NCBI GenBank assembly: GCA_029261035.1
Contig: JAJDCD010000025.1
Coordinates: 2,926 to 66,925, forward strand
Direction: 5' to 3'
DNA: 64,000 bases
Source of the DNA: Candidatus Omnitrophota bacterium
GTDB lineage: Bacteria; Omnitrophota; Omnitrophia; Omnitrophales; JACROU01
The translations under genes and the position numbers were made by a program. How positions within the stretch are numbered: the first letter of the stretch is position 1; each line of letters opens with the position of its first letter. This document shows, one piece after another, positions 1 through 21,064 of this stretch. The notes under the pieces are model-generated. The model was given only the letters and a program-made list of their open reading frames with translations. It ran no database searches and was not told where the DNA came from.

Positions 1-3000
1 ATAATGCGATTGTCTTACCTGCAACACCTGTCCCTCCAATAGAATCAAGTAAGGTCCCTGTAATATCTCCTACAAACAACCAATTGGTATTATTTCCACC
101 ATTAGTACTTGCAGCGTCCGTTGCTTGAATTGCTGTAGCATTAATATTATTACTATCCGTAACTGAAACAGCTAAAATATTTCGAGTTCCTTGAGGATCA
201 ATTCTCCATTGAGTTCCAGGATTATCACTCACAAGAAGTAAGCGGTTGGCTGCATTTTGACCATGGAGTAATAAATCATTCGCAATAACAACCGTTCCAT
301 TATTAGCAGCGAAAGTTAATGTATCACCCGTAGCAGAATCATCATTGGTTAAATCAAAGAAAGTTGTATTTCCTGAAGGAAGTGGTGTAATCGTTTGAAG
401 GGTTCCGTCTAAAATCACTTCTCCGTTATTATGATTAAACGTAGCGTTGGTTCCATGAGTAAAATCCCCACCTACATTTAATGTTGAAGAAGGTGATGTG
501 AAAATTCCATCGGTTAATGTTAAGTCACCATTAACGTCTAAAGCAACGGTTGAAGTGAAAGTATCCTCTGTTCCGTTAGCATCATTGATTAATAAATCAT
601 TATAAGCTGTGGAAACGTTATTAATATTATGCGTTGTTCCACCATTAGTACCTACAAATTCGGTGGTTCCAGAATTTGTATCATAAGTTGTTATACTAAC
701 AGTTTCTCCACCTTGTAATCTAAACGTACCGCTATTATCAAGTACATTTGCTGTTAAGCTTTGCCCCTCAATGCTCACAACGGTATTAGAGCCAATAGAC
801 AATGTTCCGTTAATTGTCGTTGCACCTGCTTGTAGTGTAGCTAATACAGCACTGGTAAATGTTAAGTTACCCAAAGCTGTTGTACCCCCAACAGCACCTC
901 CTAAAGTAACATTTCCAGTTGTACCTCCATAAACATGTAAGTTCTCAGCACTTCCACCAGCAGTACCATCTGTTGTTCCAGTTATTGTAATGTTAGCACC
1001 TGCAGGACTACCACCCGAATTTGTTGTGTCTAAAGAAATACTTAATCCCTCACCAAGTTCAACACTATCACTGATTGTGATAGCAACTCCTGAAGTAACG
1101 ATATCAGCATTTAAAACGGTTGTAGCTCCTGGGCCATCAATGGTTACGGCACCTGTACTAGTCAATTGCCCATCAATAATAATACTTCCACCAGGTTGTG
1201 GGGATCGAATCGTAATAGGGTCATTAAAACTAGTCGCATCCATTGTAATAGTTCCACTACCATCACTGCGACCAATCGTTATAGATGAAAAACCATCTTG
1301 AAGAGCTGTAATATCTGCTGTAGATAATTGTAAAGTCCCTGCCGCTCCACCAATTCCAATAGAAGTAGAAGTAGAAGCTGGTTGAAGAATCAAAGCACCC
1401 GTTCCTGTAACTGAGTTAGCCCCGCCAGTAAAATTAATTCCGTCTCCTGTTAAAGTCAATGTGTTAGTACCTACAATAAGGTTTCCTGAAAAGATAATAG
1501 TCCCAGTTTCTGTGTTAACGGCAACATTATCTCCCAATGTAACATCTCCACTAAAACTAGAATTTTCATTACCTGTATCAATATTGGCTGATAAACTTAC
1601 AGGACCACCGCTTTCGGTGAAACCACCTTCAGCCCCTAAAGTAGATCCAACAGGAACCGTCAATGTTCCTGTATGCGTAATCGATATAGCTCCACCTGAA
1701 GCAGGCACTTGACCAAACTCAGTGAAAATAATATCCGTAATTCCAAGTCCTGTGACACCATCAAAATCACCATTAGATTGACCTATGACATATATCTCTC
1801 CAGTCGATTGAACTCCAATCTGTCCAAATATACTACTAGAATCCGTATCACCTAAAATTACAGACTCTACTGGAGCACCTCCGGTTAGCGCGTGTTCAGT
1901 TAATAAAAGGTGACTATTTGCCGCATCAATATTAGTTAAAACAAATAAACTTGCTCCAACAACTTTAATATCAACACCTTGATAAAACTCCGTACCATCA
2001 CCAAAAAGAGTTGTAAAATCTAATGTTGGAGGTGTTGGGCTGGCTTGAACAAGGTATTTCATTATTAATGTATCTGCACTACCACCACTTGCCGTTTGAC
2101 CATTAAAATCATCATCCGCATAACCCGTCACATAAATATCTTCAGAAGCATCCAAGGTAATAGCATAGCCTCCAACATCAGAGCCATTTCCATCTAAAAT
2201 TGTCCAAACAAGCGCTCCTGTGCTGTTATTAATCTCAACCAATAATAAATCGTAACCACCGCTGCCTGTTTGACCACCAATATCATTATCACTGTAACCA
2301 ACTGAAAAAACTCGATCGTTCGAATCAATAACTAAGTCAAGCAAAGAAACATCTTCTGTGGATGCTCCAGAATAATTAGCCACAAAACGCTCAACACCTG
2401 CACTAGTATAACTAGCTGCAATTCCGAAACCAAAGAAATCATCGTCATCATATGTAGTACCTACAACATAAACATTGCCGGATGAATCTAAATCAATTGC
2501 ATCAGCAAAACCGTATTCAACAGTACCGTCTAACCCATTAATGAGTCGAGTCCACTGAAGTGTTCCACTAGAGTTATACTTGGCTATCATAGCAACTTCA
2601 GAATCTTCCCCAGGAAAACCATTAGACATTGGAAGATCTACATCTGTCAGACCACCGATATATACATCCCCTGCTGCGTTTGCTACTACCGAATAAGCAG
2701 CTGTATAACTGCCATCCCCTAAAAGTCGAGTCCATTGAACAACACCCGAACTATTCATTTTTATAGTAAAAGCATCTATTCCACCAGAATTTGTTTCACC
2801 ATTCAAATCACCATCTGTAAATCCAGTAAGATAAATATTGTCAGAAGCATCAATGAAAATATCAAACCCTGATTCTTCAAATGCAGTTCCAAACAATTGC
2901 GTCAAAACCCTACCCAAACCAGCAGGTGATTGATCTACATCAACAGCACCATTAAAATCAATATTGTTAGCTGAAGAAATCACTAAAGCCTCTAGTGGAG

Positions 3001-6000
3001 TTATTCCACCAACAGCGCCATCAAATTGGACATTTCCTGTTCCAGCCGTAACAGTTAATGCTCTAAAACCATCAATAGTAGAAGTGAAGTGAACATTACC
3101 AATACCCGTATTTGTATTAAACGTAGAGTCTCTTAGCAATACAACTGTTCCCGTAAGCGTAATATTACTGTTAGTTGTACTATGAGAAGAGCCTGGATTA
3201 ATCGTTGTTGCTGTAATACTTTGAACTCCAGTTGTAGTTGTATCAGAAGTAAAGGTAGCTGTTGTAGCTGATGTAATGGTAAAACTTGCTGCGTCTAAAT
3301 TAGCATTAACGCTAACAGCTGAAGCATCGACAACATTAACAGCTGCAAGAGGTGTAGAACCACCCACAACTCCATTCAAACTAATATCTCCTGTACCTGA
3401 ATCTAATGTTAAATCAAACGCCCCATCTATTGTTCCATCAAACCCAATATCTCCTGCTCCAGAACCCGTATCAAAAGTAACATTTCCTAACAAGACCAAG
3501 CTACCAAAACTAGTAATATCGGAATCTGAAGTTGAAAAAGTTCCAGTATTAAATCGATTGGTATCTGCAAAGTATGATTGTGTTCCTGTCGTTGTGACAT
3601 CTCCACTAAACGTAACCTGGTTTACAGAAAATCCTGTATCAATACTTGCTGCTGTGACATCAGCACCAAAATCCACATTATTTGCTCCATTAAAACTGAA
3701 ACTAATGGCTCCTACTGGAGTAGTTCCACCAATTTCTCCTTGAAAATCTACATTACTAGAACCCCCTGCATCAATGGTTAAACTTTGAGCACCATCAATC
3801 GTTCCAGCAATAGTGATATCTGCACCTCCAGTAAAATTATCACTATCCAATGTAGTTGAAGCCCCTAAAACAACAGCTCCTGTTAACGTGATTGCTCCAC
3901 TATTAGTATCATGAGAACCATTAAGATTAATTGTGCTTCCTGTGATGTTTTGCAATCCTGTTGAAGTTACATTTCCAGCAAAGGTAACCGTTCCTGTTCC
4001 CGCATTGATAGTAAGGCTAGTAGAAGAGCCTCCAATTACATCTTGAAAATCAATATCTCCTCCGCCTGCTCCTGTCGTAATCGTTAATACTCCATCCAGT
4101 AAAATATTCAATGAACCGGAATTCATAGTAATATTACTGTTAGTTGTTTGGACGGTTCCACCATTAAAACTTACAGCAAATCCAGTAGCCGTGTAGGACT
4201 GAGCTCCCGTTGTAATCACACCTCCAACATTTGAAAATGAAGACGTGCTTACTGTAACACTCGTTAGAGGAGTAGTACCGCCGACAGCTCCCAACAGCTG
4301 AACGCTACTACCATTAGAAATGTCTAAACTAAAAGCACCATTAATAGGTTGGCTCAACGTTAAATCACCTGACCCCCCTGTAAGATCAAACGTTGTATTT
4401 CCCACCAGTGTTATAGCGCCAGCACCGTCAACACTGATATCTCCAAAATTAGAAGTGAAATTACCTGATAATTGGACAGCTGTTGGAGATCGATACAGTT
4501 GAGTGTCAAACAACCCTGTTGTTTCAAAATCACCCGTAACAATGATTGTCCCCTGAACGGAGCCCAAATTAATATTATCTGTTGTTGTAACATTACCGTT
4601 GATTGTTACATCATTGTGCAAACTATTAAATGATAAAGCTCCAATAGGTGTCACATTACCAATATTTCCTGTTATCGTAACATCAGCTCCTGGCCCATTC
4701 GTAAATGTTAAATTAGATGCTCCATTAATGTCTCCATTAATCACAACGTTATAGTAGGTACCAGAACCAATATCACTAAAAGTAGTTGGTCCCACAAGCG
4801 TGATATTTCCATTGTATGTGTACGTTGCATTGGTTGTAGAACTCAAAATAGTTGTTGGAAGAATAATGGTAGTTGCTGTTACTGTTGGATTTCCTGTAAA
4901 TGTTGAAAAACCTTGAAAATCTACTTCGTTAGCACTAATAACATTCAAGCTATTAATAGTAAAGTTTCCTTGGAATTCAACATTACCGGTTCCTGCTGTA
5001 ATTGTAATATCTTCTAAGCCAGAAATTTGATCTCTAAAAATGACATCTCCGCCACCAGTCGTAAAAGAAACCGCTCCTTCTAAATGAATTCCTCCAATAC
5101 CTGGGGCTGTGTAATCAACATTTCCTCCGGAAGTAGTTACTGCTGCGTAGATATCAAAGGTATCTGAATCAATTGTTTGATTTCCTGTTGTTTCAACATT
5201 AATACTTGTAGGAGAACCAACAGTTCCGCCAAACATACGAACATTATCTGCATTATTAACGGTGAGACTTGCTAGTGGTGTTGTTCCACCAATTTCACCC
5301 TTAAACTCAACATCGGAATTACTATTCAAATTAACTGTAAGATCAAAAGCACCATCAATAGTTTGGTCAAAAACAACACTGCCTGCGCTGGTGGATCCAG
5401 CATCAAACACAGCATTTCCTAGTAACGTAACCATTCCACTAAAATCAATCGTTCCACTTTCTGAAGTGTAAGTACCTGCAGAAACATTGGCTGCCGCCGC
5501 AGTAATAAACATAGAACCTGATGTTGTAATACTGTCTGTTAAATTAGTAACGGAAGAAGAGGTAATATTTAACTGCCCTGGAGCTGTTGATGCACCAATA
5601 ACTCCATTCAATGTGATTACTCCTGTATTGGTACCAGCACTCAGTGTTAAACCTGCTGAAGCACCACCATTAATTGTTCCATTAATCGTTATGTTTCCAT
5701 CAGTTGCTCCACCACCCATACTTAAAATAACAAAAGTAGATGCAGGCAGTTGAACATTAGCATTAATAACAATATCTGCTTCGTCTGTAGTAATACTATT
5801 ATTTAAGTTTATTGTTCCATCTGAGGTTAATGTGATGGATGCATCATCTGAGCTTGTGATCGCAGCATTACCTGTTATTGATCCACCTGAAACAGGAGCT
5901 CTTAATAAGAAAGGATCACTCACAGAAAAAGAACCGTAAGTAATTGCATGTGTTCCATCACTTCTTCCAATTGTAATGGATAAAAACCCATCTTGAAGAA

Positions 6001-9000
6001 ATGCTATTTCGGCTGTAGTCAAATTGAATGTCGCTACTCCACCATCATTGATACCAATAGAAGTTCCAGCGCTAGCAGGTTGTAAAACTAAAGCTCCAGT
6101 TCCAGAAAGATTACCGCCAAGAGCAAGTCCATCGGCTGTAATCGTCATATCACCGCTACCAATAGCAATAGCGAAGGTAGTTGCTATAGTGCCTGTTGTA
6201 GAAGTTAAATCAAGGTTAGCTGTTCCACTCACAACAATCCCTGCTTCTCCATCCACAATCCCTACAGTAAATCCGTCAGAATCAGTAAAACTAAAAGAGT
6301 TGTTCGGGTCATTTATTTCTGCTGCTAAGGCATCCACATCATTAGCTTCGGTAAATGCTACAGTATTATCTGTAGTAATACGCAAAGCATCGACTGTAAC
6401 CGTTGACCCTGCTGTTTGTGTAACAGAATGTCCAGAAGTATTAATCAATGATAATACATCCACATTAGGAGGACTAATCGCTCCACGTACGGTAATATTA
6501 ATTGGATGAAAAACTGATCCTATTCTCAGTATAGGGGTTGTAATTGTGCTTAACTCACTATTATCAAGACTTAATTCACCCGCTTGTTCTAAACCTAAAG
6601 AAATATCTCTAGTTCCTGTAGTAGGAGTAATCTCAACAATGGCTCCTGGTGTTGTTGCTACTGTGTTAGCAGCTAACGACATAATATCAGCTATATAACT
6701 TACACCACCGCCACCCGTAATCGTTTTTGTAGCAGTTGTATTAATCGTTCCATTACTCCCTGCTTGAGATCGAATAAAGACTGTTCCTGTTCCAGCATTT
6801 ATATCTTCATTAACGGTAATAGTTCCTAGAAAACTATTAATGGTAATATTTCCATTATTTGTTGTAATACCACTAACTCCATCAACTGTGCCAATAGTAA
6901 TAAAATTATTATCATCAAATCTAAATTGTCCACTTGCTCCTGTAACATTACCAGCAATTGTTCCAATTTGGTTTTCATCCAATGTTGCTTCTGTTAAGTT
7001 CACGCTCGTCACAGCAGTGGCTCTTAAATTAGTTGCTGTAAGAATAGTGCTAGAACTTTGAGTAATTTGCCCACCAGAAACAAGAACTAACGTTGCTGCT
7101 GGAGAACTAAAATCATTATTAATAATAATATTTCCAGTTCCTTGAGATTCAAAAGACACTGTTGGAGCACTTAATCGAGAGGCTTTTGTGTTATCAAAAC
7201 TAACATCTCCTCCAAAAGTATTTCCCAAAGCAACACTTCCATCAACGCTTGATGGACGTATGGTTATTTTTCCATCACTTCGAATACTAGGAAGACCATT
7301 TAAATTATAATCATCAGCAACAATAGTAATGTCATCAGAACCGATTGTATTCGTAATTTCCATTAAGGAATCAACTGTAATTGTTGAGGTAGGCGCTCCA
7401 ATAGGAAAACTAATATTAATGGCACCTGCTCGGCCATTAAGATCTTGGCTGACCGTCAAAGTACCCGTATCAAGATCAATCGTAACCCCTTCAGCCGAAA
7501 TACCATTAATAGAATTAACGGTATCAACAGTAAGACTATTCGTATCTTTAAACGTTAACCCACCGGTAAAAATACTAGTAGCTAATGTATCTATATCATT
7601 ATCTTCTTGTAAGGTTGCTCCAAAAGATGAAATAGACAGATCATCCACTGTAATAACAGCTCCTGCATTTTGAGTAATCACACCTGTTTGTGATTCCAAA
7701 TTAGCTACAGCACCACTGCCGCCGCTACTAATTCCTGTAACCCCATCCACAATTCCAATCGCATAATTATCGGTATCTCGATAAGTAAGCGTGCCACCCA
7801 AAGAAGCAGCAAAAACAGCCACATTATTACTTGAAGTATCTAAATCAATATTATTCGATGAAATCGCGGCCACTGCTAAGTTAGTTACAACAAAACTACC
7901 AGACCCACTTCGAGTAATACCTCCAGAACCTGAGGAAAGAGAAAGTGTGGATACATTGGCCGGGGTAATAGCCAAATTAATATCAATAGACTGATTACCT
8001 GTAATTCTTAAAATATCTGCCGTAATCGTATCGATTTCTGCATCAGATAAAGCTAAAGTAGATCCAGAGCTACCTAATGTAATATCTCTAGAAGTACTAT
8101 TGGCATCAAGAATAGCAATTCCACCCGTTGCAAGTGTCGTACTAGAGGTGCTAATAGCCATATCATCTGCTGAATAAGTAACACCTCCACTACCACCGTT
8201 CACACTCGCAGTTCCATTTAGATTAAATGTATCTGTAGTAAGACTAACTCCACCACTACCACTGATTGTAATTCCTGTGCTAACTTCTATAATATCCGTT
8301 CCACCCGAAGATTGAAGTGTGACGGTTCCTGTTCCTGCAGTTACATTTTGACCAACCGTTATTGTTCCCGTTGCATCTATTTGGATATCTGCATTATTTA
8401 CAGACACTCCATTAACGCCTCCTAAACTTCCTATAACTAAATCATCTACCTCAACTATATTCAGATCTCCTCCAGCAGCCATCACACGAGCGGCCAATGT
8501 AGGAACATCTGTTTCAATAGCATCCAAACTACCTATCGAAGATTCTCCATCTAACAGAAGAATTCCTGTGCCAGAAATTGCTACATTATTAATTACTCCA
8601 TTAGAGTCACTTATAGAACCTGCAGAAATTAAAGAAAAGTTTTTATTCGTAGCCATGGTAACTAAATGTAAATTTGTATTTCCCGCACGAACAACTAAAT
8701 CATAACCTTCTGAAGATAAATTAGTATCACGGATATCTCCTCCCCCAGAACCAGCCGCTACACCAATAGTAACGGTACCTGTCGAAGCCAAAAGTGTCGT
8801 TAACTCACCCGTATCTAAATTAAAATTACCACTTCCTCCACTGAGAGCCACACCAATATTACCTACGGATGGTTCAAAGTTAACATCTCCTGAACCACTA
8901 TTGATAACTAAATTAAAATTATCAATGCGTGCCGCAATAAGAGTAATCGTAGTATTGTTTGAAGTAATGGTTGCCCCTGAAGTCAAAGCTGAAAATGCTC

Positions 9001-12000: not shown

Positions 12001-15000
12001 TAATTCCATCAACAGCAGTCAAGAAAACACTTCCATTCCCGGCATCTAAAAGAGCTGAAACAGTAAGAGCACTTGTTCCAGTTGCTGCTGTTAAGAATAT
12101 ATCTCCTGTTCCTGGTGAATTTAACGCTTGAAGGACACTAAGATTCCCATCAGCATCTACTTGGATAGAACTATTTCCAACTGCTGTAATTCCTGAAACA
12201 CCGTCAACTGTTGTAATGGTTAAATCATCAGAATCTCTAAAGGTAATAATTCCATCAAATGTAGAAACAGCTGCAAAGTCATCAGCATCATTACTTGTTT
12301 GAAATAAACTAATATTCTGTGCTGCTCGAGCGACAATACTTCCTCCTTGAACAGCTCCTCCAGTTTGACTAACACCTCCAATTCCACCTCCCCCACCATT
12401 ATCTGCAGTAATCCGAATCAATCCACTCGTACTAACCGTTCCTGAATTTATAATTACATTATCTCCAGCAAAAAGTTCAATCGTACCCCCCCCCGTACTT
12501 GCAACATTTGCTGCAATTGTTAAATGATCATCTCCGCCACCGTCCCCTGTAGCTGTCAAATTAATAGCTCCGGCTACTGAAATTGCAGAATTTACCGTTA
12601 ATGGCGAAGAAGCTGCAATGGCAATATCCCCAGATGTATTTACAGTAATACCCGTCTCAAAAGCAACAGTTGAAAGGGTTAAAGCCCCCGTATTAGAAAC
12701 AAAAACTCCTACAGTATCTGTTGTAGCTGAAAAATTTGAAACAGCTGTCAAAATAGGAGTTCCGGATAAACCAATCCCATCATCCACATCTATTTCTAAA
12801 CTTTCAACAGTAATAGTAAAAGCTCCACTACGAACAATATCTGCACTTCCACCTATTCTTAATGCGGATGCATTGGCAGGGTTAATATTATCGCTAATCG
12901 TAATTGTTCCTGAGTTAGCAGAATCAATTTGAATTCGAGTTGCTACTGTTATCGTATCTAGTTCCGCATCCGTCAAACCTAGCACGCCTAAAGCATCTGC
13001 CCCTCCCAAATTAACTTGAAGGCTTCCTGTAGGCGAAAGTAAACTAGCAATTCCTGCCGTAGACGTAGTTGTTCCAATTAAACTCATTCTATCTGCATTG
13101 TAGGTTATATTTGTAGCTGCTCTCAAATTTCCAGCAATGGTTAAAGTTCTATTGCTCAAAAAGGCTTCAAGCTGTACATTACCCGTAGTTGCTTCAACAT
13201 CATTGGTTGCAGCCGTATCCAATACTTGCAAATCACCATTAGCAAACACACCTACATTAGCCGTAGCAAGAACACCATTAACACCATCCACAGTTCCAAT
13301 ATTTAAATTAGCATTATTTCTAAATCTAAAAAATGCCCCTAATTTTGTAACAACACCCGCTAAAGTTCCCACTGTATTATCAATGTTGTTATCTAAATCT
13401 GCAGTTCCTGCAGATCGAATCACAAGTGTAGAAGCACTAATAACACCATTCGTTTGAGTCACTACTCCATCTTCTTGCGCAGTTCCCCCATTGTTAGCTG
13501 TAATTCTTACTAACCCACCGGAAGTTGTTATCGATCCAGTCGTATTGATAATGACATCATCTCCCGCCAATAATGAAATAGTTCCTCCCGTGGTACTCGT
13601 GACAGATGCCGCACTAGAAATAGTTAAATGGTCATCATCCCCACCATCATTTACTGCTTCTAAAGTAATTGCGCCAGGTCCAGAAACCGTTTCTGTAACA
13701 TTTAAAGGACTAGAAGCTACAATTTGAATGTCACCACCCGTTGTTGAAACTCCTGTAGTTGCTCCAATACCCCCTATTGTTAATTGACCCGTGTTACTGA
13801 TAAAGATTCCACTCGTGGCACTTCCGACTTCTAAATTACTTGCTGTCGTATTCAAAACTGTTCCTACAGTTCCAACTCCACCACCCGCTGTCGTCAAAAC
13901 AATGTTACTTGCTGTTAACGAAGTAGAAACACCCCCCGTAAGACTTCCTCCTGTGGAAGATAGAGTTAGAGTTCCAGCTCCTGCATTTATGGTTCCAGGA
14001 ACAATAGAAAATGCAGTAATACTAATATTTCCAGAAGTCGTATTAACAATTCCTAAATTATTAAACGAACCCACCATGGTGACCGTTTGATTATTAACAT
14101 TAAAAGTTCCTGAAGAAATGGTTAAGTTTCCATTTAAATTGAGGGCTCCTGCAAGTTGCAACGTTGAAGTCCCTGCGTAAATCAAATTATTAAAGGTACT
14201 ACCCCCCACTTCTAATGTTTGGGAAGAAGCCCCTGTTAATTGAAAAGTACCGCTACCAGGATTGAAGGTACCACTATTATTTAAATTACCTTTTAATGCC
14301 AAAGTTCCTGAATTCGATGCCGTAAAGGATCCTCCTGCATTAATGTTTAAATCGCCATTGATGGTGATGTTTGGATTAAAATTAGTTGCTGTTACATTCA
14401 TTCCAGCACCTACAGTCAGGTTGCCGTTGACTGTTAATGTTTGACCTCCTGCTGTACCCAGACGAATTTCTTTTGTTCCTAAATCAACCTTGATGATCTT
14501 AGCAATATTACTATAGCTTCCAAAGTAAGCGACTCCATTAGCAACATCAATTTCTGCTGTTTGTAAAAATTGTTCCGAACTCTGCAAATTAATAGCTCCT
14601 ACTCGAGTTAGATCAGAAAGTTGAACCTTAACAATATTAGCACCGCCGGAATTCATTCCGACATAACCAAATCCGGAAGCCACATCAATAACGAATGAAT
14701 GAGGGTTATTTTCATCTCCACCAAAATTCAAAGTAAGTTCATCAACTTGTGTAAAAGTGGACAAATCAATTTTGGCTAATTTGCCAGGGCTAGATGACTG
14801 GGCTGCTGTATAAAGAAAACCATTCGTGGTGTCAATGGCTGAAGATCTAACTTGATTATGTCCTGAAGTTAAGGTGATTGCAGAATCCCGCGTAAACGTA
14901 CTTAGATTAATTTTAACAACCACAGATGGATTTGCTTGTCCAAAAAAGTAAGCAAACCCATTAACCGTATCAATCTCTGCATTTCTAAATTGATTTTCAC

Positions 15001-18000
15001 CCACATTTAATGTAATCGTACTATCAATCATAAATGTAGAAAGATTAACTTTAAGTATACTTCCAGGAGAAGCTTGCGTTCCGAAATAAGCAAATTGATT
15101 AGCCTCATCAATAATGGCAGACTGAATATTATGTGAGCCACCCGCAGATAATGCTCCTACTCGAGTAAAGGTAGCTAAGTTTACTTTAACTATTTGAGAT
15201 GGATTTGGTGACTCAGTCGTAAAATAAGCAAACTGATTACCCACATCAATAATCGCTTCACTAATTTGATCTTCACCTGCACCCAATGTTAACGTTCCAA
15301 CTAAAGTAAAATCAGAAAGACGCACTTTAAGAACAACTCCAGGATCTGTATCTGTTCCAAAGTAAGCAAAGCCATTCGTTAAATCTATAGTAGAAGCTTG
15401 GATATTTTTATTTCCAGCATTTAATGTTATTGCTGAAACTCGAGTCATCGTACTTAGGTTAAACTTTACTACGATTCCTGGTTGTGTAGAAGTCCCTATA
15501 TAACCTAAAGAATTTGCATTATCAAGAATTAATCCACGCCCACTATTTTCACCTGCATTAAGTAGCAATCCAGAATCACGAGTAAACGTACTTAAGTTAA
15601 TTTTAACTAGATTAGTGGGTGAGGTGAATGTAGATGCATAAGCAAAAGAATCTGTATTATCAATAACAAGACCAAAAATTATGTTTTCCCCTGCATTTAA
15701 TGTTAACGCGGAGTCCCGAGTAAAAGTAGATAAGTTAACTTTAACTACGATTCCTGGCAGCGTTTGTGTTCCAGCATAAAGAAAAGAATCACTGCTATCA
15801 ATTGCCAACGTACGAGGAGAATTTTCACCTGTATTTAAGGTTAAAGCAGAAACTCGAGTAAAACTGGTTAAATTAATTTTAACAATCTTCCCAGGACTGG
15901 TGAGAATAGAAAAATAAGCGAAACTTCCTGTACTATCTATAACACCAGCTTGAGGTTGGTTTTCACCTGATTGAAGCTGAATTGCTGAAACAAATTGAAA
16001 GGTATTTAAATCAATCTTAGCTATAGAACCAGGAAACGTTCCACTAACACCTAAATAAGCAACTTGATTGGCTAAATCGACAACACTAGATGAAACAGCA
16101 AATAGGTTTAGCGGTGAACTTGGGAGTTCGAGACCATCCACTCGAGTAAAGGTATTTAAATCAACCTTAGCAAGCCACCCAGGTAAACCTCCTCCACCAA
16201 AATAAGCAAAACCATTGGGCACATCAATAAAAGCGGTACTCGCTCCCACTTCATCCAAGCCTAAAACGATAATACCCACTCGAGTAAAAGTAGACAAATT
16301 AACTTTAATCACAACCGCTGGAGACGTTCCGGTTCCAAAATAAATAAATCCATTAACTGTATCAATAACAGATGATGCGATCGTATCCTCTGGGATATTC
16401 CCATAAATTAAATCCGCTTTTTCAAAACCAGTTCCTTCTAATAGAAGATTATTGAAAGCACTTAAAGGACCTGCTGCCGTAATATCCACTGTACCTGAAC
16501 CTGTAAATTGAACTGTGTTTGGTGTGTTTGTTGTAGTGTCTAAAGTTCCAGTCCCCGTCAAAGGAGAACCTGTCCCTGTAATATTAAGCACCCCATTAGA
16601 CCCCATAACGAAAGATCCTGGATTATCAATATTCATTGTTTGGACAGTCGTTGTTCCTGAACCACCATTAACTGTTCCATTCGATTGGTTAAATGCACCG
16701 GATACCGTTAAGTCTCCAGAAAGGGTGAGTGTTCCTATATAAGCGGCTGTCATTGTTAATGAAAGAACACTAAAATTACCATCCATAGTTGAGTTTGCTG
16801 TAGAAGTTCCATCAAATACGATATCATCTCCAGCTCCAGGAGTAGCTCCCCCAAGACCAGACCAATTTGCTGTATTGGACCATAAATTATCTCCTCCTCC
16901 ATTAGTCCAGGTTCCTGTTGGGTCCCAGTTGTAGCTACCATCCCTATTGGTGGACTCCGTCATGATAATTTTATCTGGGCTTAAATTATGAGAATCTTCT
17001 ACCCAGGTGTAGGTAAGGTCTCTAATACCAGATGGATTTACATACCAGGTTCCCTCAGAGTCGTTGGATAGCAATCGGACATGACTGCCGTAAGAACCCT
17101 GAGTCTTCCAAGTCCCTGAAATAGTCTGAACCTCGTCCGATTCAAAATAGATGTACTTGTTTGGTGCTGTAACAGTAAAGTTATAAAATTGGTTACTCTG
17201 ATAAATCGTCGAACTTTGGCTCGAATCTACAAATTCGACGGTTGAGATGCCTGGCTCAAAATGACCCATATTATTCCAGTCTCCAGAAATCAGATAATGA
17301 GCATCTGATCCAGATAATGTGATTCCAGAATGAATCATCATGGACCCACCCACAGAAACAACAGAACCAGATTCTTGAGAATAAGTAATAGGATTAGAAA
17401 GAGTATTTAAAGACAAGTTACCAGAAGTCTCGATGTTACCTAATTGCATGGATTGGTTTGAGGTAAGATAGATGCCACCCGATCCAGAAGTGGCTGTCAA
17501 ATAATTAGCTTGTAGTATTACAGGGTCAGAAGAAGTACCAATAGAAGAGTTAGAAGCGGGTGGCCCGCGGATGTCAATGCTTCCGGCTATTAAAAGTGAA
17601 CTACCCATTTCAGCTCCTACGACAGACCCTTCAGAAAGGGTAAGAACAATATCTCCCGTTTGAGCATTTACCGTTCTAAGAAATATCTTTCCATTTCCAA
17701 CAACCCCATTTCCAATACTAAGACGTATAGGCGCTCCTGAAGAGTTCAGATCCGCACCTGGCATTTGGACAATATTACCTGTTCCTTCCATATCTGCATT
17801 GGCTTGGATGTCAATCACACCTGTGCCAAATGTAACCAATGGGGCTGCCAGAATAACATCCTCATTCGCAGACAAAAACATGGATCCATGGACTCCTATC
17901 GCTGAACTCTGAAGAATAACACTATTAGCCTCGTGAATATAAGACCCTTGAGATCCCACATTCAAACTTAGACTATCGGCATTAATTCCTACGGGGGAGC

Positions 18001-19525
18001 CAGAATCACCCACTCCCGTACTCGCAACTAAACTTACATGAGCACCCTCGACTACAGTAGAAGCAAGACCATCATCCACTAAAGCACCTGTTAACGATTC
18101 TATATATATGTCCCCTAAACTATGAATAGATCCTAAACTCGTATTGTCCTGCTCAACGATATAGACCCCACCCGAACCCGATCTCGCATTCAACAAACTG
18201 GACTGTACTTGAATAGGATTCTCAAGAGTTCCTACAGATGTGGTTCCTGTAGCTCCTGCATTCAGAGTCACAACTTCGGCTGTAATAAGAGAAACTCCTG
18301 GGGCTACTTCCAAAATACTTCCCAACTGAGATTCCAGCGTTATATCTCCATGACTCACCGTCATAGAAGATACTCTAATATTGTCACTCATCTGAATATC
18401 TAAATTCCCATGACTCACTCTAAGTTCTGCTGGAGCCGCCTGAATAAATTCACCTCCACCCGTCATTTCAACCATCCCTTGGAGATGAACATCAGACACT
18501 ATATATATATTCTCTACAGCGTTCACATCAATTTGTCCCTGAGTAGCTCCTACTTGAGCACTTGTATCGACATCACCTTCCATGTAAACATTCTCACCCT
18601 CCATCTTCACTTTACCACCATCGAGAGCATAGATTGTTCCAGAATGTGTAACATCCCCACCAACAGCAAGAAACTCAATAACTCCGTTTTCTTCTACGTA
18701 TGCGTTAGCTTTGATAACACCCTTCTGATTAACTAACATATCAAATACATCACTCACCTGATTAGCCGTCAAAATAACTTTTCCTCCATCAGCCTCTATA
18801 GTACCCACATTTTCTACAGCAGATTCTGTAGATGATGGTGCTGTATCTACATCAATTCCTTCATCAACAACAACACTGACTAAACTGCTTAACCCAGATG
18901 CTCCAAAACTAAGGGTCACTTTATTCCCACTAGCTAAAACCACATTCCCTTTTTCTGCTACAATCACACCTTCATTTGAAACTCGACTTCCAAAAAGACC
19001 TACAAGACCATCCTCAACCACCGAAATTTGCCCCTGATTGATAATCACCCCTGCTGGCAAATTGTTTTTATTCACGAAATTAAAATTACCTGCCATAAAA
19101 TCATCATTTGAGATATCCAAAGCAGAAGCAATTAAATTTCCAACATTAATTTGAGAGGTTGGATCAAATGTAATTCCATTTGGATTTACAATCATCACCG
19201 TTGCATTTGCATTGAGTGCTCCAGAAATAATACTCGCGCCTCCACCAGTAACTCGATTTAAAACTGAGGACGTATCAAAAGGCTGAAAAAAGTTAACCGT
19301 TTCGTTTGAAGCAACATTAAAATCGGTCCAAGAAATAACTGCTTGATGAGAGGTTGTAACATTTAAAGTGGCTGAATCAGGACGATCAAAACTAACACTT
19401 CCTTCTTCAACAGATTCACCGGTAGGCAAAGCATGAACAACAGAGATTGGAAGCAATAAAAGAAGTACCAATCCCATTAAAAACGTTGGTAGAAATTTTT
19501 TATTTCTCAATGTTTTATCAACCAT
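1..19525 (-). CDS. Giant secreted TpsA/filamentous-hemagglutinin-like exoprotein, partial: N-terminus at 19525, C-terminus beyond window start, at least 6,508 codons in window
   Basis: Hand translation of the reverse complement from the ATG at 19523-19525 gives MVDKTLRNKKFLPTFLMGLVLLLLLPISVVHALPTGESV, a signal peptide. The TPS domain follows: ...ISWTDFNVASNETVNFFQPFDTSSVLNRVTGGGASIISGALNANATVMIVNPNGITFDPTSQINVGNLIASALDISNDDF, with the NPNGI hallmark shared with ShlA/HpmA/FhaB. Further downstream are Gly/Thr/Ser/Asn-rich beta-helix repeats and PATR-like motifs (GTLALKGNLNNSGTFNPGSGTFQLTG). The ORF track lists no M-to-stop pieces in this minus frame between 1 and 19525, which fits one continuous frame with no stop inside the window. 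Confidence 0.8.
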   Translation of the reverse strand, partial: MVDKTLRNKKFLPTFLMGLVLLLLLPISVVHALPTGESVEEGSVSFDRPDSATLNVTTSHQAVISWTDFNVASNETVNFFQPFDTSSVLNRVTGGGASIISGALNANATVMIVNPNGITFDPTSQINVGNLIASALDISNDDFMAGNFNFVNKNNLPAGVIINQGQISVVEDGLVGLFGSRVSNEGVIVAEKGNVVLASGNKVTLSFGASGLSSLVSVVVDEGIDVDTAPSSTESAVENVGTIEADGGKVILTANQVSDVFDMLVNQKGVIKANAYVEENGVIEFLAVGGDVTHSGTIYALDGGKVKMEGENVYMEGDVDTSAQVGATQGQIDVNAVENIYIVSDVHLQGMVEMTGGGEFIQAAPAELRVSHGNLDIQMSDNIRVSSMTVSHGDITLESQLGSILEVAPGVSLITAEVVTLNAGATGTTSVGTLENPIQVQSSLLNARSGSGGVYIVEQDNTSLGSIHSLGDIYIESLTGALVDDGLASTVVEGAHVSLVASTGVGDSGSPVGINADSLSLNVGSQGSYIHEANSVILQSSAIGVHGSMFLSANEDVILAAPLVTFGTGVIDIQANADMEGTGNIVQMPGADLNSSGAPIRLSIGNGVVGNGKIFLRTVNAQTGDIVLTLSEGSVVGAEMGSSLLIAGSIDIRGPPASNSSIGTSSDPVILQANYLTATSGSGGIYLTSNQSMQLGNIETSGNLSLNTLSNPITYSQESGSVVSVGGSMMIHSGITLSGSDAHYLISGDWNNMGHFEPGISTVEFVDSSQSSTIYQSNQFYNFTVTAPNKYIYFESDEVQTISGTWKTQGSYGSHVRLLSNDSEGTWYVNPSGIRDLTYTWVEDSHNLSPDKIIMTESTNRDGSYNWDPTGTWTNGGGDNLWSNTANWSGLGGATPGAGDDIVFDGTSTANSTMDGNFSVLSLTMTAAYIGTLTLSGDLTVSGAFNQSNGTVNGGSGTTTVQTMNIDNPGSFVMGSNGVLNITGTGSPLTGTGTLDTTTNTPNTVQFTGSGTVDITAAGPLSAFNNLLLEGTGFEKADLIYGNIPEDTIASSVIDTVNGFIYFGTGTSPAVVIKVNLSTFTRVGIIVLGLDEVGASTAFIDVPNGFAYFGGGGLPGWLAKVDLNTFTRVDGLELPSSPLNLFAVSSSVVDLANQVAYLGVSGTFPGSIAKIDLNTFQFVSAIQLQSGENQPQAGVIDSTGSFAYFSILTSPGKIVKINLTSFTRVSALTLNTGENSPRTLAIDSSDSFLYAGTQTLPGIVVKVNLSTFTRDSALTLNAGENIIFGLVIDNTDSFAYASTFTSPTNLVKINLSTFTRDSGLLLNAGENSGRGLILDNANSLGYIGTSTQPGIVVKFNLSTMTRVSAITLNAGNKNIQASTIDLTNGFAYFGTDTDPGVVLKVRLSDFTLVGTLTLGAGEDQISEAIIDVGNQFAYFTTESPNPSQIVKVNLATFTRVGALSAGGSHNIQSAIIDEANQFAYFGTQASPGSILKVNLSTFMIDSTITLNVGENQFRNAEIDTVNGFAYFFGQANPSVVVKINLSTFTRDSAITLTSGHNQVRSSAIDTTNGFLYTAAQSSSPGKLAKIDLSTFTQVDELTLNFGGDENNPHSFVIDVASGFGYVGMNSGGANIVKVQLSDLTRVGAINLQSSEQFLQTAEIDVANGVAYFGSYSNIAKIIKVDLGTKEIRLGTAGGQTLTVNGNLTVGAGMNVTATNFNPNITINGDLNINAGGSFTASNSGTLALKGNLNNSGTFNPGSGTFQLTGASSQTLEVGGSTFNNLIYAGTSTLQLAGALNLNGNLTISSGTFNVNNQTVTMVGSFNNLGIVNTTSGNISITAFSIVPGTINAGAGTLTLSSTGGSLTGGVSTSLTASNIVLTTAGGGVGTVGTVLNTTASNLEVGSATSGIFISNTGQLTIGGIGATTGVSTTGGDIQIVASSPLNVTETVSGPGAITLEAVNDGGDDDHLTISSAASVTSTTGGTISLLAGDDVIINTTGSITTSGGLVRITANNGGTAQEDGVVTQTNGVISASTLVIRSAGTADLDNNIDNTVGTLAGVVTKLGAFFRFRNNANLNIGTVDGVNGVLATANVGVFANGDLQVLDTAATNDVEATTGNVQLEAFLSNRTLTIAGNLRAATNITYNADRMSLIGTTTSTAGIASLLSPTGSLQVNLGGADALGVLGLTDAELDTITVATRIQIDSANSGTITISDNINPANASALRIGGSADIVRSGAFTITVESLEIDVDDGIGLSGTPILTAVSNFSATTDTVGVFVSNTGALTLSTVAFETGITVNTSGDIAIAASSPLTVNSAISVAGAINLTATGDGGGDDHLTIAANVASTGGGTIELFAGDNVIINSGTVSTSGLIRITADNGGGGGIGGVSQTGGAVQGGSIVARAAQNISLFQTSNDADDFAAVSTFDGIITFRDSDDLTITTVDGVSGITAVGNSSIQVDADGNLSVLQALNSPGTGDIFLTAATGTSALTVSALLDAGNGSVFLTAVDGITLTNAGADVTASGGVFTADADSNDDATGDFTLDDAGAAITLSNNNVTITAADVSLTGTISVGSGNVILQPSTDTRTIAVADGAAGDFSLSTADLTTQITASGTLTIGISTGTGAVDIQAINFSTEFYDVVIRGGLIEVGPVSLEIITLGTDQFLQLISTANIAGVGYVALGQSGGVLFDAVTGVASGVQFPSNIFTESVAARTTTSGNVSISTPTSTGDIEIGSVGGVDGVSVVGGGTLTISQNGASQDVFINQPLTTDGGQITINSRTDITFNGASADVTTSGALSLLSDSDFNGTGNFNQNNAGSIISASGGILIRADDVTISGTITADAADITVTASISGIGYGLGSIQFNSVNLSQAELDVFATTGTLIIGNGGFAANILLGDVDLSGEDYNLTVRGTSGTINEVILNTDKILTIDMDSTGTGIVDGNGPLNNVQIAGSNGLLVIDNTTKFGTEADRIETQIQRIIGRTQIAGNTISIDNTGDLTIIADPGGLGFSGLSSSGGLHVTTSGNLTIEAAANGGNDALGVSLVATSGNLNINASVSYFNSSTGDLILTAGTDIIVGNSALIQASGPLSTQITATAGVFTMGAGTRISHTSTSDEALTISAGGNVTIAEIDEGSTNADVHLVSIGGSIGIIAGEGGVSSSDGTSNMSFTANNGITISDVVSTTDAGNLTFDADSDNNGVGSFVLDPTGSLSSQTGDSTIISDTITLNSTLSFTSGNVTLEPSTTGGTIGLGGGTGDLTFSEVQLDQITATSLTIGNTGTADLRVDSLVLSNVSTLNLVSGAGVVEEGAGDGTVDLTVTNLSMNTATTVNVDVNVTNIAIANTGSGGIDITDTAGGMIVDTVSGTIGVLTNGGGISIVTLSPLTITKDVVDTGGGNIVLTASGTAATDDLTIQANVTASGGNGSITFNAGDAITLSVAGTTSTVGTGDITMNAGTGVSTAIVNITRPVTAVNGNISINSPNGSSMNSGLADISTTGTGTITFDVDSDNSGAGAFSALTSGATITSNNTTITLIAARIDNFNLVINSGSGDVNFEPSVGNIGVALSGGSGNFNLDTGELTTLLASTGTVTIGVAAGSGGGDIRDTNLSSEGYDLVVRAGNTNLHLVTMATNKNFSLISAGSISDSNGVINNVAISGTGILLLDGESSIGSLDAIETDVPTLAARVMAAGGDLNIVEVDDLVIGSLGGVNGVSVNNADIQIDATGTITVGQNVTAGTGTVTLQSSGGTDIIEVSTGITISGSGGVSLTTDTFNLNGTASVNGGSGGVTYSADDMAISTSSTTLATGGIAILDANSTSRDITLGSSGSTLALSDAEIDTITADILRITGNQSIDINLAITPANVSTLSLSSGSGGITRSGSGSFVVTNLAVAAISSNNIDLDTSSNNVAVFAASLGGTLTYRDTDNYAIGIVDGVTGISSGGSGAVANLESQTGVITQNAGAVITVDDLSISSFGATLQEDNDIDTLATSIFTGGLTFKDTNSLTVDTVNSINGISAEGVTIDLDTGTLTVSQDLNGRAGAINISFPIGAPTSTITVDSLMEITNTIGSDDITIVADDYNLNGLPSIRSDGKITIRPSSVDGSVALGNTFGGDVSFDNTKASRLSAPTVSFESQGTGNIIINNDFSSPAATLVLVSGGQITQSSSTILTATNLRATAVTSVNLTEATLDENQIGTIAGNVTGASGQFRFDDNNFITIGTVDGVSGITTNNGNITINSFLGTITVNEDINAGTGTVFIRSQAGSNGTINTTATKTITGGGGVSYIADIMSLAANTVATTPGAIVEITPTTGTRDISLGLEQAGELSLDNSELSTITTPILRIGSVFHPINITVRGAISPPNVDVLSLINTSGHSVTQTAGSTVTVDALRITTDNTVAFTEANDVDALAAEINDPNNSFSFTDSDGFTVGIVDGEAGIVVSGTANLDLTSTTGTIATTFAIAIGSGDMTITADGLALGGNLSGTGALVLQPASAGTSIGINDGGVATFNLTTAEIAFLQDGFLSITIGRSDGTHAITYGSFSVSDPFLLRAPVSGGSITGNAAITSSDDASITLTSDGTINLNNSITTDEADIVINANVQLPASTFVILSMGGGATDGNITINGTINGGASAGLTLSAGTNTGVITLNGVIGASTAPGQLNITSSSVTNLTDSITTSGSMFITAAAANVSAGTYTSESGTIDFSGMVTLLGNAVFDAGSTSAGSVVFDQTIDGAFDLTVNLNSNSDVEFKGEIGGTTPLASLTVNNADNVRMFGGTVGSPTSINVETTGNQTIDSDTFDIYAAVTTSGGNVDYTAPGIGGIHLEGAVSFTTGGGDVIFRDQISGLEDITITAGTGNVEFQGNFTINSLNVISANEVDFQGFSTFTGNPTVTATTIILPTTILSSTTNATYTYNGNITLVGPTTFSDIGSGTYYNVVINGDINGASNLTFTNGPGADVTITGNIGNVTPIGALSFNSLHNDVTINGNVTTTDNINLGSVQGTIIVTGDFETTGLFDTQLYRSPTAVQLSGNFTSNFGDISVDGAGAITLVGNTTFDLTGGSGDLTLSQPINGAFSLDISNGSSVQLLGAVGGTTPLTSVTVSTSSFSNVGGVITTGAQSYTATGFAVSFNGGTVQTTNSNITMNSGSLNILLDGVLTITTGAGGGDIDFQDVIGGSSTSLTINAGTGTVTFAGNVTSTGLQNITGSTINLNGSHDTNSGAITLTGAVVLGASTTLDSDNFTGGADITIAGTIDGAQSLTIDAGGSSNVDFQGEIGGTTPVGAISFSFNGANNVDFGADVTAASIDTGFSVNQVTFSGDVTTTGTQSYFADTNRFNTGTFSTSDSDITSFGSLVLLGNVTFDTGSGAGDIGFDGTIDGAFDLTLDSGTGDISLNGVVGGSTPLAAVNVVDASAVSVNANLDAASFTITSATTATFTSDTTTTGVQSITATTINPGSSHSTTNSNITLTGTVVLLRDSTFNTNTGIGNVHFTSTIDGFRALTVTAGTGNVQFDGAVGGITPLEALVISSANNIDFNGAVDVDQSPAGLGRVLTQLFGTAFEESGFDIFIDASDNIYLTGFTDGDLNGETNSGGIDAFTIKMNSSGVVQWTRLLGDGSYTAAYSVVANAAGDVYIGGLTDVDLPMSNGFPGEDSEVAMIAKYNSSGTLQWTRLINGLDGTVEYGFADAIDLDSSGNVYVVGTTYDDDDFFGFGIAASYTSAGVERFVANYSGASTEDVSLLDLVIDSNDRVFSVGYSDNDIGGQTGSGGYDLLLVEINNSTGALVWTILDGNGSDVGGYAITLDASEDIYVTGYADDDFNGQTASGGSADTLIMKYLVQASPTPPTLDFTTLFGDGTEFYQGVDIKVVGASLFVLTNIDAANSHLLLTEHALTGGAPVESVILGDTDSSSIFGQIGVQSTGEIYVIGQSNGDFDGVTGLGITDIIFTEFGQVPASGGAISITHTGTLTVPVGSTLGAEGGFTESGGPVSLSANIDTGNENSSFSGDVTLGDNVAVNTETGTIIFSGNLIVGTNTLTLTGDGINFTGGANSVTGTGALILQPASTSTSIGIGGAAGTLQLSTADITALQDGFSSITIGRSDGSGTITMDATSFNDPITIRSPQPGGSIIIDGQLTSTGAVTIDGPGATTVLNADIVTSGVAITISDSVELGEGLSISLDTTNSGGSPAGANITITGTTDGTAGGSAENLHVYGGTTGNVTLGGAVGGTTALGNLTFTSAVLATLQAGATTINGTLSIGSNTVVSIEGQSLTANVLDNSGTFRLQGGETVSITTYDTNSGTTEFVGTNGGTTHNINNVSTAYNDLLINDANGTEDTFTSTVALDVNGDLTLTDGIFTSPSSTLNVGGDFTHGTNATFNHNNGEVILDGTLQTITPLPSGNTTFFDLTNDDSATGDTLTFAANNGTVVIANDLLLHGQNAANRLLLVSDNPGTQWRIDPQGTRNILAVSVTDSNNINATAIQATDAASTNGGNNTNWLFVGDITGTLLDSIGGTGVAGKTIAL
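14470..16430 (-). repeat. Array of about 14 tandem 138-bp (46-aa) coding repeats inside the giant gene. Consensus roughly IDxxNGFAYFGTxTxPGxVVKVNLSTFTRVxALTLNxGENxx; probable beta-propeller or beta-sandwich blades
   Basis: DNA-level periodicity of about 138 bp. On the plus strand the motif ctcgagtaaa.gta...ttaa.tttaac recurs near 14600, 14750, 14890, 15030, 15170, 15300, 15435, 15575, 15710, 15850, 15990, 16140 and 16275. The translation shows the repeated FAYFGT...PG.VVKVNLSTFTR...GEN units. Confidence 0.7.
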
Positions 19526-20090
19526 GAATTTGCCCTTTGTAGTTTTAGTAGCTACAAATTAGTTACATAATAAATATAACATATTAAAAGTATTTAAAAC
19601 TATTGCATCTAATTAATAACACCTCCTCATAAGCTAAAACCCCCTATAATTACAAGGGGTTACACTCCATGTAAAAGAGAGAAAAAAGTGTACAAATACC
19701 CCCTATATTGCCTAACTCTCAATTGGAATCACTTTTTTGAAGAAATTTGTAATACCTTAAAAGAGAAGATAAATAGATGAAGAAAATAAGAAAAAATGAG
19801 AGAAAAATTCAAAGGAATAGAGTAAGAATTAAATCTTAAGTTTAAACACTAAACTTAAAACTAAAACAAAAAAATAAGAAAAAAGCAGCAAAAAAAACTA
19901 AAAAATTAAGCCCTTTTTTTTAATAAACACACACAATTAAGTTCAAAACTCTTACTCAAAAGAACATAAGAGTCCCCTCATTTTTAAATAAACTTTTAAG
20001 AGAAAAAAAGAATTAAATGATGAAGAAAAAAAGAACAATTTCTGAAGATATTTTGAATAAATTTAGGAGAATTTTTCGTTAAATGAACTT
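19526..20090 (-). promoter_or_regulatory. AT-rich upstream region of the giant gene, about 560 bp with A-tracts; presumed promoter/regulatory region. A perfect 8-bp-arm palindrome gtacatgg-c-ccatgtac lies just upstream of it at 20095..20111
   Basis: No ORF of 60 aa or more here. Long A-runs (aaaaaaataagaaaaaagcagcaaaaaaaactaaaaaatt). A possible SD (aaaggg) sits 8 nt before the ATG. Confidence 0.3.
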
Positions 20091-20104
20091 CAAAGTACAT
20101 GGCC

Positions 20105-20146
20105 CATGTACCAGACTAAACACTTCGCTACGCTTCGTAGTCGGTG
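20105..20146 (-). repeat. Conserved tRNA-trailer element, copy 1, 3' of tRNA-Tyr. Consensus on the minus strand: ACCGAC..CGAA...GAAGT....T.TGGTCTGGT(A/T)CATGG
   Basis: Similar to 20355..20397, which sits 3' of tRNA-Gly: catgtaccagactaaacacttcgctacgcttcgtagtcggtg versus ccatgaaccagaccaaatattttacttcatttcgcggtcggta. Confidence 0.4.
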
Positions 20147-20245
20147 CAAGGCTCACCACGCATATTTTAATATTAAAGGTTTATTTGGCTTGCCATGCAC
20201 CTAGCTGTGAACCGTTTTTTCAGCGTTCACGTTTAGCATGGTGCG

Positions 20246-20330
20246 TGGTGGGGAGAGCAGGATTCGAACCTACGAAGGCGAAGCCAGCAGATTTACAGTC
20301 TGCCCCAGTTGGCCGCTTTGGTATCTCCCC
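20246..20330 (-). tRNA. tRNA-Tyr (anticodon GTA), long variable arm, CCA encoded
   Basis: Reverse complement: GGGGAGATACCAAAGCGGCCAACTGGGGCAGACTGTAAATCTGCTGGCTTCGCCTTCGTAGGTTCGAATCCTGCTCTCCCCACCA. It gives a cloverleaf with anticodon loop CTGTAAA and closely resembles bacterial tRNA-Tyr. Confidence 0.85.
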
Positions 20331-20354
20331 AAAAGTATTATTTTGATATTTACC

Positions 20355-20397: not shown

Positions 20398-20435
20398 ACA
20401 GAGTCGCTTTTCTTTAATGAATATTAAAGAAAAAA

Positions 20436-21036: not shown

Positions 21037-21064
21037 AACACATCACCTATCTATTATTATCAAA

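Follow-up and report, generated by a model that had tools for sequence, protein, structure and literature searches.

A 64-kb stretch of DNA from a Candidatus Omnitrophota bacterium (64,000 nucleotides of contig JAJDCD010000025.1, hereafter the window) was found to carry, at one edge and on the minus strand, the 5′ part of a giant tpsA-like gene. We consider it probable that the product is a giant exoprotein of the TpsA type (type Vb secretion, also called two-partner secretion, TPS) made by an uncultured diderm, that it is exported through a TpsB transporter encoded downstream or elsewhere in the genome, and that it acts as an adhesin fibre. A TpsA-type exoprotein had been proposed in an earlier sequence-only reading of the same DNA, and a signal peptide, a TPS domain and a predicted beta-helical passenger were all recovered here, in support of that proposal.

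The gene is real, intact, conserved and under purifying selection. Translation of the minus strand from the ATG at position 19525 to base 1 gave 6,508 codons with zero stops, in agreement with the single open frame reported earlier, and the remaining five frames of the same 19.5 kb contained 190–712 stops each. From base composition, ln P of finding no stop in a frame of 6,508 codons is approximately −467. An in-frame stop lies 11 codons 5′ of the ATG at 19525, and no other start comes between the two. The encoded portion has a mass of 653.5 kDa, an isoelectric point (pI) of 4.05, no cysteine, and a combined Gly, Thr and Ser content of 37%; zero cysteine and a low pI are typical of type V passengers. 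GC content was even across the giant gene and its neighbours.

A syntenic ortholog was identified in locus L040 (L040:9944-21206; JGI Ga0315338_1000074, range 408564-429769, on a 462-kb contig). The gene order there is yebC-ruvCAB-cdaA-ybbR-pdxJ-nnrD, followed by the same three tRNAs and queF as in the window and then by the TPS gene, the frame of which stays open from the ATG as far as the examined locus reaches (at least 3,754 amino acids, aa). The contig runs on for another ~32 kb and probably contains the whole gene along with its downstream neighbours. The ortholog is collinear with the window's protein at 52–72% identity and has 14 blades in the propeller array described below, as well as an extra insertion of shaft modules of about 1 kaa (thousand aa). 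The ratio of nonsynonymous to synonymous substitution rates (dN/dS) between the two giant genes was 0.18–0.19. RuvB and PdxJ of the two genomes are 82% and 71% identical, respectively, and L040 alone among the named loci examined was close in its housekeeping proteins.

It is accordingly next to impossible that the frame arose as an artefact of assembly, or that it belongs to a pseudogene in decay and is open by chance. Suspicion could arise from the metagenome-type contig and from the repetitiveness of the protein. However, the stop statistics speak against chance, no near-identical DNA repeats are present, and the syntenic ortholog, which is collinear and open in an independent assembly with dN/dS of about 0.19, rules this explanation out, so that it is effectively refuted. 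Tandem Repeats Finder returned no tandem repeats in the DNA of the gene, and copies within its DNA repeat families are 62–81% identical. The repeats are therefore old and diverged, rather than the products of a collapsed or expanded assembly, a concern that the sequence-only reading had raised. The internal module duplications that it described were evident in protein self-comparison and iterated profile searches.

The features of the gene and its product are as follows, where residue i corresponds to window position 19525 − 3(i − 1).

1..19525, minus strand: 5′ part of the giant tpsA-like gene, 6,508 codons, open at the window edge.
19430..19525, minus strand: Sec-type signal peptide, residues 1-32 (MVDKTLRNKKFLPTFLMGLVLLLLLPISVVHA, followed by LP), read by eye.
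18635..19357, minus strand: TPS secretion domain with NPNGI motif, residues 57-297 (PF05860, TIGR01901, TpsA structures).
17504..18634, minus strand: proximal shaft continuing the TPS domain, residues 298-674 (self-comparison, ortholog).
16925..17503, minus strand: first full cartridge copy, residues 675-867 (profile of relatives, E = 1.5e-24; W-rich, with a ...YNWD end).
16421..16924, minus strand: W/G-rich linker and partial cartridge, residues 868-1035 (profile match over 905-1016).
14474..16420, minus strand: array of 14 predicted blades of ~46 aa, residues 1036-1684 (unit count, AlphaFold, Foldseek).
13889..14473, minus strand: two partial cartridge copies, residues 1685-1879 (1691-1784, E = 9e-12; 1787-1875).
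5936..13888, minus strand: main shaft, residues 1880-4530, with full and partial copies of a super-module of ~340-370 aa.
2924..5935, minus strand: distal shaft, residues 4531-5534 (self-comparison and direct reading).
1736..2923, minus strand: SBBP-type beta-propeller, residues ~5535-5930 (PF06739, CylK, NF047494).
797..1735, minus strand: further shaft, residues 5931-6243 (self-comparison).
74..796, minus strand: second full cartridge copy, residues 6244-6484 (module profile, E = 7.8e-90; ends ...GGNNTNWLF).
1..73, minus strand: start of a new domain, residues 6485-6508 (VGDITGTLLDSIGGTGVAGKTIAL; comparison with the L001 junction).

By sequence comparison the TPS domain is a bona fide one, three independent libraries being in agreement. 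PF05860 matched residues 57-297 in a 650-aa piece with E = 1.4e-28 (101 bits; cut-off 33.5), and TIGR01901 matched with E = 5e-22 on a half-protein scan and E = 7e-23 (80.4 bits; cut-off 29.1) on a 650-aa piece. The N-terminus also matched the solved TpsA structures of EtpA (8.8e-36), HMW1 (1.4e-27) and HxuA (1.5e-21), and the NPNGI motif was read in the translation as MIVNPNGITF. The preceding signal peptide (residues 1-32, MVDKTLRNKK-FLPTFLMGLVLLLLLPISVVHA), as read by eye, has a basic n-region and a Leu-rich h-region and ends in ...VVHA before LP; the L040 ortholog displays the same layout, MKIKSCKNYLLIIGVLGLLFFPVTLLA followed by LPTGE. Both N-terminal features had been called in the sequence-only reading, which placed the TPS domain at residues of about 40–300. 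When the protein was scanned against Pfam as two halves of ~3.3 kaa, the TPS domain was missed and the N-terminal half (9626-19525) returned no family at all. The same domain reached 101 bits once a 650-aa piece was used as query; for giant proteins of low complexity, scanning piece by piece is needed.

A HMMER search of 1.84 billion representatives returned 17,185 relatives of the TPS region, the best of them 53% identical. Among the top 150 of these, the longest is 4,485 aa and most are 1–2.9 kaa. The best named relatives are Candidatus Omnitrophica proteins, which carry the NCBI label 'filamentous hemagglutinin N-terminal domain-containing protein'.

The TPS domain appears to be continued by a beta-helical shaft. 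The proximal part, which contains an internal repeat (residues 346-479 vs 571-710 in self-comparison) and is 52–59% identical to the L040 ortholog, is presumably beta-helical by continuity with the TPS domain. In the main shaft, copies of the super-module are 25–46% identical to one another, as found by self-comparison and iterated profile searches. One module (residues 1880-2250) was modelled, with a predicted local distance difference test score (pLDDT) of 86.4, a predicted template modelling score (pTM) of 0.88 and short beta-strands throughout; on this model, the super-module would fold as a right-handed beta-helix. A homologue search with the shaft module found four weak relatives only, probably because that search returns proteins of up to ~1.2 kaa only, and residues 331-3400 had no match in the PDB at the sequence level. 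The distal shaft consists of ~100-aa periodic repeats with the motif ...IDGAxxLT...GxIGGTTPLxSLTV..., and the shaft segment at residues 5931-6243 includes a paralog of residues 4437-4668 at 43% identity.

Two propellers are predicted along the protein. The 14 units of 46 aa that had been described earlier as putative propeller blades were located at residues 1036-1684. An AlphaFold2 model of this array, built from a 45-row alignment, reached a pLDDT of 91.4 and a pTM of 0.81 with four strands per unit, and Foldseek placed Utp21 and other tandem double seven-bladed WD propellers at the top of its PDB matches (E ~1e-24, ~10% identity). From the model and these matches, the array is predicted to form a tandem double seven-bladed beta-propeller (2 × 7). 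None of the WD40, YVTN, LVIVD and lactonase-type models matched the array, the sole hit being Lactonase at E = 0.061. The array has 486 homologues (best E = 5e-209), and many of the top ones are ~40% identical over ~94% of its length; the lineages represented are Bathyarchaeia, Patescibacteria, Pyrinomonadaceae, BRC1/Sumerlaeia and Schekmanbacteria. The 46-aa family as a whole occurs in Archaea and many bacterial phyla, and it has no Pfam or NCBIfam model and no assigned function. A precomputed PF11073 label stands on many database members of the family; it could not be reproduced on the window's array.

The second propeller, of the SBBP type, was absent from the sequence-only reading. PF06739 matched residues 5530-5930 in six stretches with E = 1.6e-12 (47.6 bits; cut-off 20.5), and the region also matched the propeller of CylK (E = 3.4e-22) and NF047494 (E = 6.7e-23, under the family cut-off of that model).

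The stretches taken earlier for PATR-like repeats, which had led to the description of a TPS-plus-PATR hybrid, are better assigned on profile evidence to a ~238-aa module, the cartridge, which lacks a model and is frequent among the large surface proteins of many phyla. The PATR models PF12951 and TIGR02601 gave no match at E ≤ 10 on the exact stretches in question, nor on 650-aa pieces at E ≤ 1, and after HMM scans at three granularities the hybrid description is not upheld. The stretches, with GTLTLSG in residues 868-1035 and GTLALKGNLNNSGTFNPGSGTFQLTG in residues 1685-1879, correspond instead to partial copies of the cartridge. The sole Pfam signal in residues 1685-1879 was a weak, sub-threshold match to DUF7305, and the first full copy (residues 675-867) had no Pfam match at E ≤ 10. 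The cartridge ends ...GTQWRIDPQG...DSxNxNA...GNNTNW and is represented in neither Pfam nor NCBIfam.

A scan with the last 300 aa of the protein detected the module in at least 34 loci, mostly at 27–48% identity, with one 42-residue fragment at 55%; the second full copy (residues 6244-6484) is 35–48% identical to modules in these loci. The phyla among the matches listed include Omnitrophota, Patescibacteria, Actinomycetota, Planctomycetota, Bdellovibrionales, Nitrospirota and others, and large surface proteins of these loci (L001-L034) carry up to 13 copies per open reading frame (ORF). Beyond the second full copy, 24 residues (VGDITGTLLDSIGG...) run to the window edge. The nearest relative of this end, from Omnitrophota (L001, 42% identity), has the junction GNNTNWTF...ISISGTLFNDKG..., which leads into a beta-sandwich-like start and FG-GAP-like repeats. 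Because L001 continues from the same junction, the window's protein almost certainly extends past the edge.

Several observations weigh against the assignment of the protein as a TpsA-type adhesin fibre. The most direct concerns its partner. No TpsB was found in the 64-kb window, which includes 44 kb on the 5′ side of the gene: tblastn with the TpsBs of three relatives gave a best E of 0.24, and the TpsB hidden Markov model (HMM) returned nothing, as expected from the earlier statement that no TpsB lies adjacent upstream. None was found in the 10 kb upstream of the L040 ortholog either, whereas a POTRA_2+ShlB TpsB directly adjoins the TPS gene in all nine other relatives whose gene context was read (L036, L038, L039, L011, L016, L018, L024, L041 and L042). 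The TpsB partner is thus assumed, not seen. The window holds the 5′ part of the gene and the DNA on its 5′ side, and the C-terminal part, the total length and the downstream genes lie beyond its edge. The alignment behind the shaft model was shallow, with 11 rows drawn from paralogs plus four outside relatives, and the model represents one of many shaft modules; Foldseek with this model gave nothing significant (best E = 0.07). The Fil_haemagg repeat families PF05594 and PF13332 gave no match at E ≤ 1, whether the protein was scanned as two halves or as ten pieces of 650 aa, so the hemagglutinin-type beta-helix repeats named in the sequence-only reading were not borne out. Finally, the propellers and cartridge modules are likely the ligand-binding parts, and this is pure inference.

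The missing 5′ TpsB is a conserved property of this lineage, since the L040 ortholog shares the layout. As none is encoded on the 5′ side, the TpsB must lie downstream or elsewhere in the genome. The secretion machinery itself exists in this kind of organism, as the TPS genes of L018, L024 and L011 (and also L036) have an adjacent TpsB. Non-operonic TPS arrangements are known, and some TpsBs serve several TpsAs (PMC5422565). In one of the relatives, L038 (L038:3517-16820; ENA ERZ25039540 contig_58142), the TpsB is split into ORFs of 271 and 317 aa, and after a 511-aa TPS ORF come ORFs of 2,055 and at least 3,709 aa in the same orientation. This locus may hold a further TpsA of giant size that frameshifts or sequencing errors have broken up.

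Two-partner secretion requires an outer membrane. Among the genes of the window are lptF/G, lptC/A, lptB, one for a lipid A acyltransferase, kdsD, kdsA and kdsB, from which the host can be taken to be a diderm with a lipopolysaccharide outer membrane. In such a cell, the signal peptide would take the unfolded chain through Sec, and the N-terminal TPS domain would dock on the POTRA domains of a TpsB channel of the Omp85 family. The passenger, which is Cys-free, acidic and rich in G, T, S and N, would then be threaded out and fold stepwise into a right-handed beta-helical shaft. The two propellers would be displayed along the fibre, the 14-blade double one near its base and the SBBP one far out. 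The fibre would most likely serve in attachment, be it to a surface, to a polymer or to another cell. A helix of the filamentous haemagglutinin (FHA) type rises ~0.02–0.025 nm per residue, and with ~5,400 non-propeller residues the fibre would be on the order of 100 nm long. We infer both the route through a remote TpsB and the adhesin function, and consider a giant adhesin the most reasonable function for the protein.

The sequence-only reading had offered a contact-dependent effector beside the giant adhesin. The adhesin stands as the most reasonable choice; for an effector, no positive evidence was found within the 6,508 aa. Contact-dependent toxin delivery in the manner of CdiA, with a receptor-binding part on the shaft and with a polymorphic C-terminal toxin and an immunity gene beyond the window edge, would agree with the TPS domain and the very long beta-helical passenger, and the C-terminus does lie outside the window, where the frame clearly continues. 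We nonetheless regard it as improbable: no FHA-1/FHA-2 Fil_haemagg, PT-VENN, pretoxin or toxin domain was detected in the 6,508 aa, the closest relatives with a visible end (L002, L018 and L024) finish in cartridges or short low-complexity tails rather than toxins, and no cdiB precedes the gene, although the usual order of cdi loci is cdiBAI (PMC5422565). It is also quite unlikely that the beta-helical modules tile the cell surface as a structural coat or surface-layer (S-layer)-like sheath. A match to RsaA could be cited for such a coat, but it reflects the generic beta-solenoid fold, and S-layer proteins of the RsaA type leave the cell by type I secretion, for which the signal is C-terminal, rather than through an N-terminal TPS domain. 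Furthermore, a monomer of over 650 kDa with two propellers would be atypical for a lattice subunit.

Little probability likewise attaches to a weapon for predation or epibiosis, with cell-wall- or polysaccharide-degrading activity, like the 'Archaeovorin/Dockerin-type' giants of Omnitrophota. No C39 or S8 peptidase, transmembrane segment, SecA domain, dockerin or upstream locus resembling a type II secretion system (T2SS) was found, and a catalytic domain was not detected; matches to lyases and tailspikes ranked below those to TpsA proteins and share the fold only. A more specific proposal builds on the TpsA assignment itself. The window gene and its ortholog could define a conserved 'orphan' lineage, one of giant TpsA fibres that Omnitrophota-like nanobacteria export with no need for a dedicated TpsB next to the gene, by a shared or remote TpsB or another Omp85 channel, with the 14-blade propeller as the host- or prey-recognition head of a fibre of at least ~100 nm. 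This is speculative and, in our judgement, on the unlikely side. If true, type Vb secretion would be an unrecognised route for the giant-protein phenotype of Omnitrophota.

Upstream of the giant gene, the following features were located.

19526..20245, minus strand: leader, 720 bp, 71% A+T, with one sigma-70-like match (19675-19646).
20246..21140, minus strand: upstream neighbours, namely tRNA-Tyr (20246-20330), tRNA-Gly (20436-20509), queF (20680-21036) and tRNA-Thr (21065-21140).

The tRNAs and queF are the neighbours named in the sequence-only reading, and its figure of 560 bp for the leader is corrected here to 720 bp. In a promoter scan, sites were scarcer in the leader than in shuffled sequence. 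The presence of a riboswitch, or of some other known RNA, was considered and rejected: Rfam found no known RNA family over the leader, tRNAs being the only matches. Conservation relative to the 1,043-bp leader of the L040 ortholog was patchy only. Within the final ~120 nt (19526-19650 vs L040:9820-9943), short blocks are conserved, such as GTTATAyTTAkTwTGTAAC...TTGTAGC and CCTTGT..TTA.AG...GGGGT, which are possible promoter or operator elements.

The order of the tRNA and queF genes differs between the two loci, being Thr-queF-Gly-Tyr in the window (20246-21140) and Thr-Tyr-queF-Gly in L040 (L040:7331-8900), within syntenic flanks. Beyond this block, the window continues with nnrD, pdxJ, ybbR, cdaA, ruvBAC, yebC, folP, ftsH, tilS and more housekeeping genes. 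We consider it unlikely that a genomic island was recently acquired at the tRNA genes: GC content is even, as noted above, and the syntenic ortholog, in a relative with RuvB at 82% and PdxJ at 71% identity, argues against it. Elsewhere in the window, at 51142-57309, lptC/A and lptB are directly followed by hpf, a PTS EIIA-2 gene (ptsN-like), hprK and a CofD/YvcK-like gene. The common proteobacterial order is lptB-rpoN-hpf-ptsN; no rpoN lies between lptB and hpf here. An ORF of 259 aa (33579-34358, minus strand) between tRNA-Met and recO had no Pfam match at E ≤ 1e-5.

If the assignment as a TpsA-type fibre is right, bacteria other than Proteobacteria employ type Vb secretion for very large surface fibres. 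For the giant proteins of Omnitrophota, discussion to date has centred on T2SS-like loci and built-in SecA domains. The widespread 14-blade propeller family, for which no model exists, would also gain a functional context, namely display on a fibre outside the cell. The analysis carries a caution for annotation as well: Pfam and NCBIfam do not see the greater part of this 650-kDa protein, and even the TPS domain escapes a scan in pieces of ~3 kaa.

The relatives of the protein include smaller TpsAs that combine a TPS domain with the cartridge. L018, L024 and L011 (Omnitrophota and Planctomycetia) have a related TPS domain and the same ~238-aa cartridge, and the TPS domains of these three and of P0012 (GCA_028707125.1) are ~33–47% identical to that of the window by BLASTP or phmmer. 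These TpsAs are 1,028–2,553 aa long, have an adjacent POTRA_2+ShlB TpsB and, unlike the window's protein, lack the 14-blade propeller. The array itself is shared with stand-alone 14-blade proteins of Bathyarchaeia, Patescibacteria, Acidobacteriota, Sumerlaeota and others (e.g. P0108-P0131), at ~40% identity over ~94% and with 2 × 7 blades. These are proteins of 650–1,190 aa with Ig-like, BACON or PKD-type domains, however, and are not parts of TpsAs.

The well-known TpsAs, among them EtpA of enterotoxigenic Escherichia coli, HMW1 of H. influenzae and FHA/FhaB of Bordetella, range from ~100 to ~650 kDa when complete (PMC5422565), compared with 653.5 kDa for the incomplete protein here. The window's protein differs from EtpA, HMW1 and FHA in having no Fil_haemagg repeats, two embedded propellers and no 5′ TpsB, and in belonging to a non-proteobacterial, uncultured lineage. 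With CdiA it shares a TPS domain and a long beta-helical stick; FHA-1/FHA-2 and the pretoxin motif were undetected in its 6,508 aa, and the gene order is not cdiBAI.

The giant proteins described from Omnitrophota comprise the Archaeovorin/Dockerin-type proteins (West-Roberts et al. 2023) and a tandem-repeat scaffold class (Nielsen & Lui 2026). The window's protein resembles them in phylum, in being long, repeat-rich and probably surface-exposed, in its proposed role in attachment and in its diverged DNA repeats. Those giants measure 10–147 kaa, however, and the window's protein, at 6,508 aa or more, is far shorter so far; it also has no C39 or S8 peptidase, transmembrane helices, SecA domain, dockerin or upstream T2SS-like locus, unlike the Archaeovorin/Dockerin-type giants. 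Neither paper mentions TPS or hemagglutinin-type secretion in the phylum, and our literature search found no paper linking Omnitrophota to 'two-partner secretion' or 'filamentous hemagglutinin'. Hemagglutinins are nevertheless a recognised group among bacterial proteins of more than 5,000 aa, and Candidatus Omnitrophica is among the phyla most prone to proteins of that size (PMC11573180). The sequence-only reading had singled the gene out as the most unusual element of the window. Its very large size and absent 5′ TpsB stand, but the degree of unusualness is reduced by the known range of TpsAs (PMC5422565), by the survey of large bacterial proteins (PMC11573180) and by the larger proteins of Omnitrophota. 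The protein is thus an oversized TpsA of a known class, not a new system or mechanism, and what makes it mildly unusual among known systems is the combination of two embedded propellers with a conserved lack of a 5′ TpsB.

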